Below, one piece after another: positions 1 through 3,000 of a DNA stretch of 33,113 nt. This DNA is from a virus. Taxonomy: Duplodnaviria; Heunggongvirae; Uroviricota; Caudoviricetes. The stretch lies in the IMG/VR virus record IMGVR_UViG_2879770953_000003, one strand, 5' to 3'. The number at the start of each line of letters is the position of its first letter. The first letter of the stretch is position 1. Position numbers: made by a program.

Positions 1-3000
1 CTATGGGATAAACTTATTTTTACCAATTGTATAAGGCGGTGCATAAGATTCTCGGCATGCTTCCAGATAATCCGACCACCACTGCATCATCGCTTTGCGG
101 GCTTCCAGGTGCTCTGCCTTATGAATATAAGCCATGCGCACGGTATTGCGCTCCTGATGACTCATCTGGCGTTCTACTGCGTCCTTTGCCCATAAACCCG
201 ATTCCATCAGCGCACTGCATGCCATTGCCCGGAAGCCGTGACCGCAGATATCCTTTTTCGTGTCGTAACCCATCACCCGCAGTGCCTTATTGACCGTGTT
301 TTCACACATTGGCTTATACGGGTTATGGTCGCCGGGGAAGATCAGTTCATTATTACCGGTGATATCCTTAATCTGTTTCAGAATGGCGATGGACTGTTCT
401 GAGAGGGGGACGATATGCGGCATTCGCATTTTTGCCCCGCGGCCGGAATAACGCACGCCAATAATGGGTTCTCGCGTCGCGGGTATCGTCCAGACTCGGT
501 TTGTGAAATCAATCTCTGACCAGCGGGCGAAACGCAGTTCACTGGAGCGAATGAACACATGCAGCATCAGCAGAACGGCATGCCGGGTCAGTTCACTGCC
601 CTGATGATATGCCCCAATACGTTCAAGCAGTTCAGGCAGCCGCTCCAGCGGCAGGGCAGGATAGTGCCGTCTGACAGGAGGTGTGGTCACGCCGCCAAGG
701 TTTGCTGCAGGGTTCGTATCGATTAACTCCAGATGGACCGCATGGCGCATTATGTTACTCAGGTGCTGCCGTGTGCGGGACGCAACCTCCAGCAGACCTT
801 TTTCCTCGATCCCTTTCAGCAGGTCAATGAAATGACGGGGTTTAAGTTCTGATACAGGTAGGTTCCCGATGACCGGAAAGATGTGATTGTTCAGGCTGGC
901 AAGCAGACGGTCGGCGGTGTTCTGCGACCATTTCCTGTTACTTTTATGCCACGCCAGCGCCACGTTTTTAAAAACTTTCTCCGGTGTTCGTGAGCCACGT
1001 TCAGCAGCCCGCTGCTGTACCGGGTTGATATTCAGCGCCAGCATTTTACGGATACCTTCACGTTGCTGTCGCGCATCAGACAGGGAGATGGCTGGATAGG
1101 CACCCAGCGCAATGCGGGATTCTTTACCGCTAATACGGTATTTGAGATACCAGTGGCGGGAGCCACCCGGCTTGACCAGCAGATACAGACCGTGAGAATC
1201 GGAGACTTTAAAGGGTTTATCAGAAGGCTTGAGGGTGCGGATTTTTGCGTCGGTAAGGGATATATGGGGGTCACTCCATTATCGAACTAACCTGATCCCA
1301 GATTTGACCACCAATTTTTCCCGATGCGTAGGGTAAAATCAAAATGCACCGAGAAGAGTTTTCACACTAACCTGTTGAATCAACATCAGATAAAGATTCG
1401 CAAGGATGCATGAAAACAGAAAATTGGCTCCTCTGACTGGACTCGAACCAGTGACATACGGATTAACAGTCCGCCGTTCTACCGACTGAACTACAGAGGA
1501 ATCGTGAGAACGGGGCGCATATTACTTAGCGGTACCTTGTCTGTCAACACTAAATTTCATAAGCCATTTCAATTGGTTAATTAATCTGCAAAGTTGTTAA
1601 TTAATGAACATTCGTCGCCGAAAACGAGTCTGTATCATTAGCGTGATGCAGTCTCTGCAAAGGATCTTGTTGATAAAATTGACAGAAACGTTGCCACAAT
1701 GAAGGGAAACGAGGAGCAAAAAGTTCTGGGGCGCTAAAGAAATATTCAGAAAGTACGGCAAAACATTCAGCAGGATCACTGGCAGCATAAGCATCAATGC
1801 TCGCCGCATTCTCACCAACTAATTCGATTTCTTCCTGAATGTTGTTCATTGCAGCATGAAGATCGTGTTCCCAGCCAGCAACCTCACGCAACGAAATAAA
1901 GGGAACTCCGCTGGCGCGATCGCCGTTACGGGTGTCCAGCTTATGAGCGACTTCATGAATAATCAGGTTAAAACCAGAAGCATCAAAAGAATCTTGTATA
2001 TCCAACCAGTTCAAAACGATAGGCCCTTGCTGCCAGCTCTGACCTGACTGAACAATACGTTGGTTATGCACCAGACCGATATCGTCTTCCCATTCATCAT
2101 CGACCACAAATGGCGCAGGATAAATTAAGACTTCATGAAAACCATCCAGCCATTCCAGTCCTAACTCCAGAACGGGCAGGCAAAATAGAAGTGCTATCCG
2201 GCAGCTTCTTAATGAATTCAGCTCAAAGCCCTGTAAAGGAACAAGCCGTTTTTGCTGTAAAAAACGTTCGGCAAGAGCGACCAATTTGCTTTGTTCCTGT
2301 TCTGTCAGACACGTTAAAAGGGGGATCGATAGTGCTTCCTGCCAGGGAAGGGCAGTTTGATGTGCTGATTCTTGTACTTTCCAGGGCCACTTAATCATCG
2401 TTTTGCTCGCAAACTCGTCACTTGAACAAAATTGCACGGACAGGGACTGTTAAAATGCCAAATTTCCTGGCATCATGGCAACCATCTGAGCGGAGAGATG
2501 CCGGAGCGGCTGAACGGACCGGTCTCGAAAACCGGAGTGGGGGCAACTCCACCGGGGGTTCAAATCCCCCTCTCTCCGCCAAAATTCAATCACTTATACA
2601 TCATTAAGTCAGTGACAAAAATCACACTTGGAATTACTTGGAATATTTTCTTGGAATATTTTCAGGTAACGGGACATCAAGTGTCGGTGAAACTTTAACC
2701 TTCCTGTCATAGATTAGCACTTGCCCCTCGGTTTTGTGACCAGAGAAAAGTTGCTTATCCCGACTGCTTCCTTCATAGTCTGAAATTCCTTTCGCCTTCA
2801 GATCATGAAAGGTGAAGTCGGTTAAAATACCTGAAATTTTGCCTGCGCGATTTCTTGCTTCTACCCACATTTCGTTAAAGCCTTTGTACATATATCGGTT
2901 GCCGTATTGATTGCTGATTACATAGGCGGATGTTGGTAACTGTTTTGCTTTTTCGATCGCCGCCTGTAATCGTGGACTCCATGCTTTTATCTGTTTTTTT

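Follow-up and report, generated by a model that had tools for sequence, protein, structure and literature searches.

The stretch of DNA analysed here, hereafter the window, is 33,113 nucleotides long and belongs to the IMG/VR virus record IMGVR_UViG_2879770953_000003 (Caudoviricetes). It contains a prophage attachment (att) region in which a tRNA-Ser(CGA) gene, serU (2492..2581, + strand; ARAGORN), is followed on the - strand by int, the gene of a lambda-family tyrosine integrase (Int). This gene is split. Its C-terminal fragment (2634..3225, - strand) encodes residues ~145-341, including the catalytic tyrosine in ..LIYDRK.., and its N-terminal fragment (4490..4926, - strand) encodes residues 1-145, among them a lambda-like domain for arm binding (MGRRRKNPEHEKLPPNVY...) and the greater part of the core-binding domain. 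Comparison with the intact int of a related record (L001) shows that homology ends at 3225/3226, where an IS3-family insertion sequence (IS) of 1264 bp interrupts the gene (3226..4489, + strand; orfA, 3290-3592; orfB, 3628-4446). A 3-bp target duplication, ACG, flanks the element (3223-3225 and 4490-4492), which we take to be IS600-like.

Next to the tRNA gene, the octamer CTTGGAAT occurs three times on the + strand, at 2627-2634, 2637-2644 and 2650-2657, and nowhere else in the window. About 1.5 scattered copies of a random octamer would be expected in a sequence of this length; the three copies observed all lie within 31 bp. A sequence search thus recovers the triple repeat described in the initial annotation, and the position of the tRNA gene agrees with the distance given there, 46-82 bp from the tRNA-Ser 3' end. 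Tandem Repeats Finder detects a 13-bp period at 2637-2663 (2.1 copies, 100% match, unit CTTGGAATATTTT), so that the last two copies do form a perfect tandem pair, and a 10-bp period at 2626-2644. On the minus strand, the int frame ends with ...PENIPRKYSK and its TAA codon (2636-2634) comes directly after the second 13-mer. In a natural allele having a single 13-mer (L003), the frame is shifted and Int ends with ...ENIPSNSKCDFCH*. The 13-bp repeat therefore sets the int stop codon, and the coupling of the protein C-terminus to the repeated sites, also proposed at the outset, is a property of the locus.

On the comparative evidence set out below, the CTTGGAAT(A/T) repeats are very probably the arm-type Int sites P'1, P'2 and P'3 of the int-proximal (P') arm of attL in a lambdoid serU prophage, where the N-terminal domain of Int would bind them. 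With positions in the att arms counted from the first base of GGTCTCGAAAACCGG, near the start of the core, the candidate P'1 site (2627..2636, + strand; CTTGGAATTA) stands at +106 and contains the int stop codon. The candidate P'2 site (2637..2649, + strand; CTTGGAATATTTT) stands at +116 and corresponds to the first 13-bp unit, whose minus strand codes for the last residues of Int, ..KYSK. The candidate P'3 site (2650..2662, + strand; CTTGGAATATTTT), at +129, is the second unit, with ..NIPR encoded on its minus strand.

Arm-type sites are expected to have counterparts in the other att arm. Searches of the window with the tRNA 3' end and 3' half, with a core 15-mer and with the K-12 attB flank each found no attR; the window holds attL only. 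The other arm was therefore taken from related genomes, and there the counterparts are present. In the Escherichia coli prophage of FDAARGOS_536 (two fetched stretches joined into one 46.8-kb sequence; both strands counted), CTTGGAAT has five copies, 5/5 of them in the att arms and none elsewhere. Two belong to the P arm, in direct orientation at -113 and inverted at -48, and three to the P' arm, all direct, at +106, +116 and +129. The P-arm sites read CTTGGAATATT and, inverted, ATTCCAAG, both at attR and in P-O-P' junctions. The P arms of NC19 and 06-00048 have the same two sites. The P arm of O157:H7, although otherwise strongly diverged, still has CTTGGAATATTCT in the place of the direct site and ATTCCAAA in that of the inverted site. 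Finally, a contiguous P-O-P' junction, as in an excised phage or a tandem prophage, is found in five IMG/VR contigs, and the four that were read (L114, L120, L150 and L132) all carry the full set of five sites and include a third variant of the P arm. Two further candidate sources of attP, vB_EcoS-689R5 and vB_EcoM-606R7, were rejected: these are prophage predictions with host flanks and are of no use for the P arm, because they hold attL and not attP.

Within E. coli, the repeats are kept in ~1,150 genomes, including a lineage only 87% identical. In this lineage, diverged by 13%, all three sites are retained, the third as GTTGGAATATTCT, and the Int tail reads ...NIPTKYSK*. Beyond E. coli, the Klebsiella phage KpF5 (OR327748), isolated from wastewater, has an int of ~66% DNA identity and an attP with the same serU 3' half. 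There, another motif, TGAGAAAA, is placed at -111, -48 (inverted), +107, +117 and +130. A scan of relatives, using one genome per species, gave 80 loci in which Int homologues of 37-99% identity adjoin tRNA-Ser(CGA), tRNA-Ser(UGA) or tRNA-Leu(UAA). In the 27 loci whose P' arms were examined, nearly all have two to three direct repeats ~10-13 bp apart, and the three-copy arrays are mostly spaced by 11 then 13 bp. About 25 of the more distant homologous integrases (37-65% identity) are accompanied by two to three repeats that are lineage-specific and co-vary with them. Thus, CTTAGAATA is the motif of Raoultella, Citrobacter and Rosenbergiella, and other lineages have TTCAGAATA, GGGGAATAT, TTCCTAATAT, TCCGAAGAT, TTCACTATA, GGTAACT or TTCCGAAT in their P' arms. 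The relation of the array to int also differs between groups. In the group of E. coli, Raoultella, Citrobacter and Sodalis, the int open reading frame runs into the repeats and ends with ...KYSK, ...RYSK or ...KYTK; in KpF5 and the tRNA-Leu group, the repeats are wholly downstream of the int stop.

Positions that stay fixed while the motif changes are the pattern that protein-binding sites co-evolving with their binding domain would produce, and they are hard to explain as an accident of coding sequence. This bears directly on the idea that the array is a slippage-prone coding repeat at the int 3' end, having no DNA-binding role and resembling arm sites by coincidence. Such an idea would agree with the overlap between the 13-mer and the int frame, with a copy number that varies like that of a neutral minisatellite (see below) and with the poor conservation of the encoded Int tail. 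It is nevertheless extremely unlikely, since the prophage has only two further copies of the octamer, both in a non-coding P arm at a distance of 46 kb, and since neither the arrays located past the int stop nor the change of motif at constant positions would follow from it.

The same comparisons bear on the age of the array. Three P' sites, ~10/11 and 13 bp apart, represent the family's ancestral layout: the relatives and the 13%-diverged lineage already have three sites, so that the three-site state is not a recent accident. The 13-bp tandem pair pointed out in the initial annotation is thus real, but its description as a duplication does not hold if a recent event is meant. Both a recent accidental duplication and a terminator or regulatory role of the repeats were rejected on the grounds of the P-arm counterparts and of the three-site layout in distant relatives.

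Two observations concern the occupancy of serU by more than one element. In two IMG/VR contigs (e.g., L142), the P' arm is of the E. coli type, but the left arm, upstream of the core, is another one, which is without CTTGGAAT and has the KpF5-type TGAGAAAA. Junctions of this type suggest that serU is occupied, in tandem or as a hybrid, by two phages that differ in Int specificity. In FDAARGOS_536, a second mobile element, with DotA/TraY-like, RepL and H-NS-like genes, comes right after attR (L005, ~13600-13935), and its junction again resembles TCAATCACTTA. Because this second element follows the partial tRNA, serU is tandem-occupied in this genome.

The attachment core can be placed in the tRNA gene itself. 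Identity between attP and attB, as seen in the attR copy and in the attP of KpF5, starts at GGTCTCGAAAACCGG (2521) in the anticodon stem and continues to the tRNA 3' end, with a symmetric stem around a 7-nt loop. The putative attL core is therefore the anticodon stem-loop CCGGT-CTCGAAA-ACCGG (2519..2535, + strand), in which the two inverted halves of the stem would serve as core-type sites and the loop (2524-2530) would form the overlap region. The variable arm provides a marker for the exchange. It reads GTAG...CTAC in the native serU of K-12 and GTGG...CCAC in the complete attL tRNA of the window and of other lysogens (in the window, 2539 is G and 2550 is C, vs A and T in K-12), whereas FDAARGOS_536 shows the K-12 bases in the partial tRNA of its attR. 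These attL/attR differences, together with the start of the identity block, put the exchange on the 5' side of the variable arm (5' of 2539), in or near the anticodon loop; the exact cleavage positions proposed here should be read as predictions. In the window, serU is a hybrid, with a bacterial 5' part and a 3' part (~2521-2581) from the phage attP. The tRNA of lysogens thus has a G-C pair in the variable arm instead of the A-U pair of K-12, which means that the 3' half supplied by the phage carries a compensated substitution. The classification of tyrosine integrases by Williams (2002) is reported to recognise a class that integrates in the tRNA anticodon loop. The features of that class, namely an identity block that starts in the anticodon stem and reaches the 3' end, a 7-nt loop within a symmetric stem and a crossover 5' of the variable arm, are those found here, with no notable difference.

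Between the core and P'1, an H'-like candidate site for IHF, ATTCAATCACTTA (2584..2596, + strand), has one mismatch to the consensus WATCAANNNNTTR; it corresponds to +63 in the attP of both E. coli and KpF5. The E. coli attP has IHF-consensus matches at +63, -31 and -86. They are found at identical positions in the O157 arm, and the KpF5 attP shares two of them, at +63 and -85. Four matches are observed in the E. coli attP, vs 0.8 expected in shuffled sequences. In K-12, attB just 3' of serU (L006, ~1643-1660) contains TATCAATGACTTA, which fits the IHF consensus WATCAANNNNTTR without mismatch, where the phage P' arm has the version with one mismatch.

Intact Int has 341 residues. It matches Pfam Phage_integrase (E = 1.7e-11) and, at threshold, Phage_int_M, and has a central SAM-like domain. 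A phmmer comparison with lambda Int (PDB 1z1b) aligns residues 1-313 with residues 1-338 (E = 1.2e-12), and the N-terminus MGRRRKNPEHEKLPPNVY aligns with lambda MGRRRSHERRDLPPNLY, MGRRR...LPPN.Y included. In lambda, Int has five arm-type sites, distributed over the P and P' arms and bound by its N-terminal domain, and IHF sites are located between arms and core (PMC4880445). Several results weigh against an equivalent role for the repeats studied here. Taken alone, the N-terminal domain of the present Int scores below threshold with Pfam Arm-DNA-bind_1 (E = 0.074); a profile of this domain places the lambda Int N-terminal domain (1kjk) on top of the PDB matches at E = 0.21, and hhalign gives 68%. 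Because these sequence signals were weak, a structure model and a fold search were added. The AlphaFold model (Int residues 1-146, 26 homologues) has strands at 17-19, 23-26 and 34-38 and a helix at 39-58, with a pLDDT of ~81 for residues 17-58, and its best Foldseek matches, which speak for arm-type sites, are lambda Int chains across both domains (5j0n, 1z1g, 1z1b). The fold matches also include the isolated complex of the N-terminal domain with P'2 DNA (2wcc), at 61 columns with a TM score of 0.49, a weak match when taken by itself. The candidate IHF sites are consensus matches, and no description of these arm sites was found in the searchable published record. Finally, the sites are relics as regards function in the window, where the system is dead, since int is split by the IS600-like insertion and attR is missing. 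Overall, Int is homologous to lambda Int over its full length, and there is moderate support, drawn from alignment and modelling, for an extra lambda-like N-terminal arm-binding domain of the expected kind (~60 aa, a three-stranded sheet and a helix).

The gene directly upstream of int, and overlapping it, encodes a 67-residue DUF4224 protein (4926..5129, - strand; Pfam PF13986, E = 1.7e-15), and the DUF4224-int order is the same in related prophages. From its position, the product is a candidate excisionase or directionality factor. Short direct repeats in att arms are targets of directionality factors as well, so that the present repeats might be recognised by another recombination protein such as this one, or by a regulator of int expression, instead of Int. 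We consider this very unlikely. Two P-arm sites, one of them inverted, together with three tandem P' sites next to int reproduce the layout of the lambda Int arm sites, and Int possesses the extra N-terminal domain that such sites need. In lambda, moreover, the Xis sites are confined to the P arm (PMC4880445, Figure 1 legend).

The most probable scheme is then as follows. A lambdoid prophage is integrated in the anticodon loop of serU, and its integrase is a heterobivalent tyrosine recombinase of the lambda type. With its small N-terminal domain, Int would bind the three P' sites and the two attR sites that share their motif in the P arm. Its C-terminal domains would handle the core within the anticodon stem-loop of the tRNA, and IHF-type bends would bring arms and core together.

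Among characterised systems, lambda is the closest; by relatedness, the serU prophages of pathogenic E. coli and KpF5 come nearest. The initial annotation had likened the repeats to the arm-type sites of lambda-like att arms; the motif on both arms, the geometry shared among relatives and the homology of Int to lambda Int all argue for this likeness. With the general lambda att scheme taken as reference (PMC4880445), the points in common are an Int homologous over its whole length, five copies of one motif, of which two are in the P arm and three are in tandem in the P' arm by the int stop, and, as consensus matches, candidate IHF-like sites between arms and core. Several differences should, however, be noted. 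A tRNA anticodon loop houses the core, the coding sequence of int extends into P'2 and P'3, and the P' arm is ~55 bp longer than that of lambda because it carries the tRNA 3' half. Unlike in lambda, no Xis or Fis sites were identified in the att region. The motif is also different: it is CTTGGAATAT here, and that of lambda is C/AAGTCACTAT. KpF5 and the wider group of serU, tRNA-Ser(UGA) and tRNA-Leu(UAA) integrases share with the present system the tRNA target (serU for KpF5), the start of the identity block, site positions to within 1-2 bp and P' arrays of two to three sites, mostly at 11/13-bp spacing. KpF5 and the tRNA-Leu group differ by their arm motif (TGAGAAAA in KpF5) and by the absence of overlap between sites and int.

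The serU prophages of pathogenic E. coli are closer still. In the EspJ-carrying prophage of O157:H7, presumably the one known as Sp14/CP-933U, int and the P' arm are 98.6% identical to those of the window, and attR adjoins espJ and yodB. The copy in the window differs in being degraded, with a disrupted int, IS600-like, IS1 and IS66 sequences and an ipaH gene. Genome papers on Shiga toxin-producing E. coli list serU as a prophage site, and the family carries type III effectors, espJ in O157:H7 and ipaH here.

In E. coli and Shigella, the P'2 and P'3 units have the peculiarity of being identical over all 13 bp. As a result, the 13-mers would slip, and alleles with one to four copies are found. 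The int gene and the P' arm are present next to serU in ~1,150 of 5,426 complete E. coli genomes (about one in five); prophage-free genomes match only to a few bases past the tRNA. The two-copy (2x) allele, with the tail ...ENIPRKYSK* and an Int of 341 aa, accounts for ~1,055 of 1,152 genomes, counted as ungapped matches of at least 95% identity to a 2x query. The one-copy allele (1x; tail ...ENIPSNSKCDFCH*, 345 aa) is found in 40-65 genomes and the three-copy allele (3x) in ~26. The latter has the tail ...ENIPRKYSKKIFQVIPSVIFVTDLMMCK* and 360 aa as translated, for a RefSeq coding sequence spanning 1,080 nt (359 codons). A four-copy allele (4x; ...ENIPRKYSKKIFQENIPSNSKCDFCH*, 358 aa) is found in at least one genome. 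Counts of the rare alleles are given as ranges because BLAST splits the 26-bp difference into two perfect pieces, and the identity bands obtained with megablast do not cleanly part 1x from 3x. Within O157:H7 alone, 2x (e.g., RIMD 0509939), 3x (EC4115, TW14359) and 1x (F8092B, MB9-1) alleles are all present. Moreover, the flanking haplotype is not the same for the 1x, 3x and 4x alleles, which argues that changes in copy number are recurrent. The mechanism would be replication slippage: the identical P'2 and P'3 13-mers would misalign during replication and yield alleles of one to four units, each step adding or removing one arm site and shifting the last codons and the stop of the overlapping int.

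Across the alleles, the number of P' sites goes from 2 to 5. All alleles retain the catalytic tyrosine and at least 19 residues downstream of it, and the Int tail beyond ...SPTLD.P varies freely among relatives. Since this tail is unconserved, the change probably has little effect at the protein level. It can be asked whether the 13-bp unit is a contingency switch, with a P' site and the Int tail toggling phase-variably between a state competent for excision or integration and a locked one. The co-existence of 1x, 2x and 3x in the O157:H7 clone, and the scatter of 1x, 3x and 4x over haplotypes, do indicate frequent recurrent change, and lambda uses different subsets of its arm sites for integration and excision (PMC4880445). 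On the other hand, ~92% of the genomes have the 2x allele, and the 13%-diverged lineage keeps the ...NIPTKYSK* tail, which resembles purifying selection with occasional mutational noise; that no allele loses the catalytic tyrosine or its nearest downstream residues also speaks against a switch. We therefore regard it as unlikely. A less binary version, in which the identical 13-mers are a mutable dial whose one to four units change the number and phasing of P' sites as well as the Int tail, and hence the balance of integration and excision, appears doubtful to the same degree. If true, serU prophages that carry effectors could be locked or unlocked by such a dial in pathogenic lineages of E. 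coli and Shigella.

The allele data have a consequence for annotation. At NCBI/RefSeq, the dominant 2x int is labelled 'frameshifted' in FDAARGOS_536 (L004, 20170-21220), and the rare 1x int is given as intact in LCP30S3_I5 (L003, 1670-2707). The comparative data suggest the opposite polarity, with 2x as the ancestral state, and the label would then reflect an inconsistency of annotation and not biology (one annotation checked).

More generally, the feature almost certainly belongs to an ordinary, well-understood type, whose only mild oddity would be a slippage-prone pair of arm sites that rewrites the integrase tail. The current understanding of site-specific recombination is unchanged by these results. 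They do provide a confident and testable att map for a very common prophage family, which places the core in the anticodon loop of serU and adds five arm sites as well as three candidate IHF sites. In addition, the co-varying pairs of motif and integrase from ~25 lineages constitute a data set on how the N-terminal domains of Int read DNA.

Upstream of serU, asnT (1425-1500, - strand) and an mtfA-like open reading frame (1601-2437, - strand) correspond to the serU neighbourhood of E. coli. Beyond asnT, a second integrase gene (1-1044, - strand) is annotated as an integrase in the related record L001, and in other E. coli genomes this position is that of the yersiniabactin island integrase. Two adjacent tRNA genes therefore both serve as integration sites. 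Otherwise, the window consists of a decayed lambdoid prophage, with a Q antiterminator gene and terminase, capsid and tail genes. A gene for an ipaH-type NEL E3 ubiquitin ligase (30160-31803, - strand) and fragments of IS1 (5532-6035, - strand) and IS66 (12255-13076, + strand) are also present, and this content points to a Shigella-type genome, that is, to a degraded remnant of Shigella type. The orfA/orfB pair of the IS3-family element that splits int has a second copy at 13133-14289. Finally, four tRNA genes (Met, Lys, Thr and Gly; 10301-10610) lie directly downstream of the Q antiterminator gene (9386-10102), a position at which lambdoid phages often carry tRNAs.

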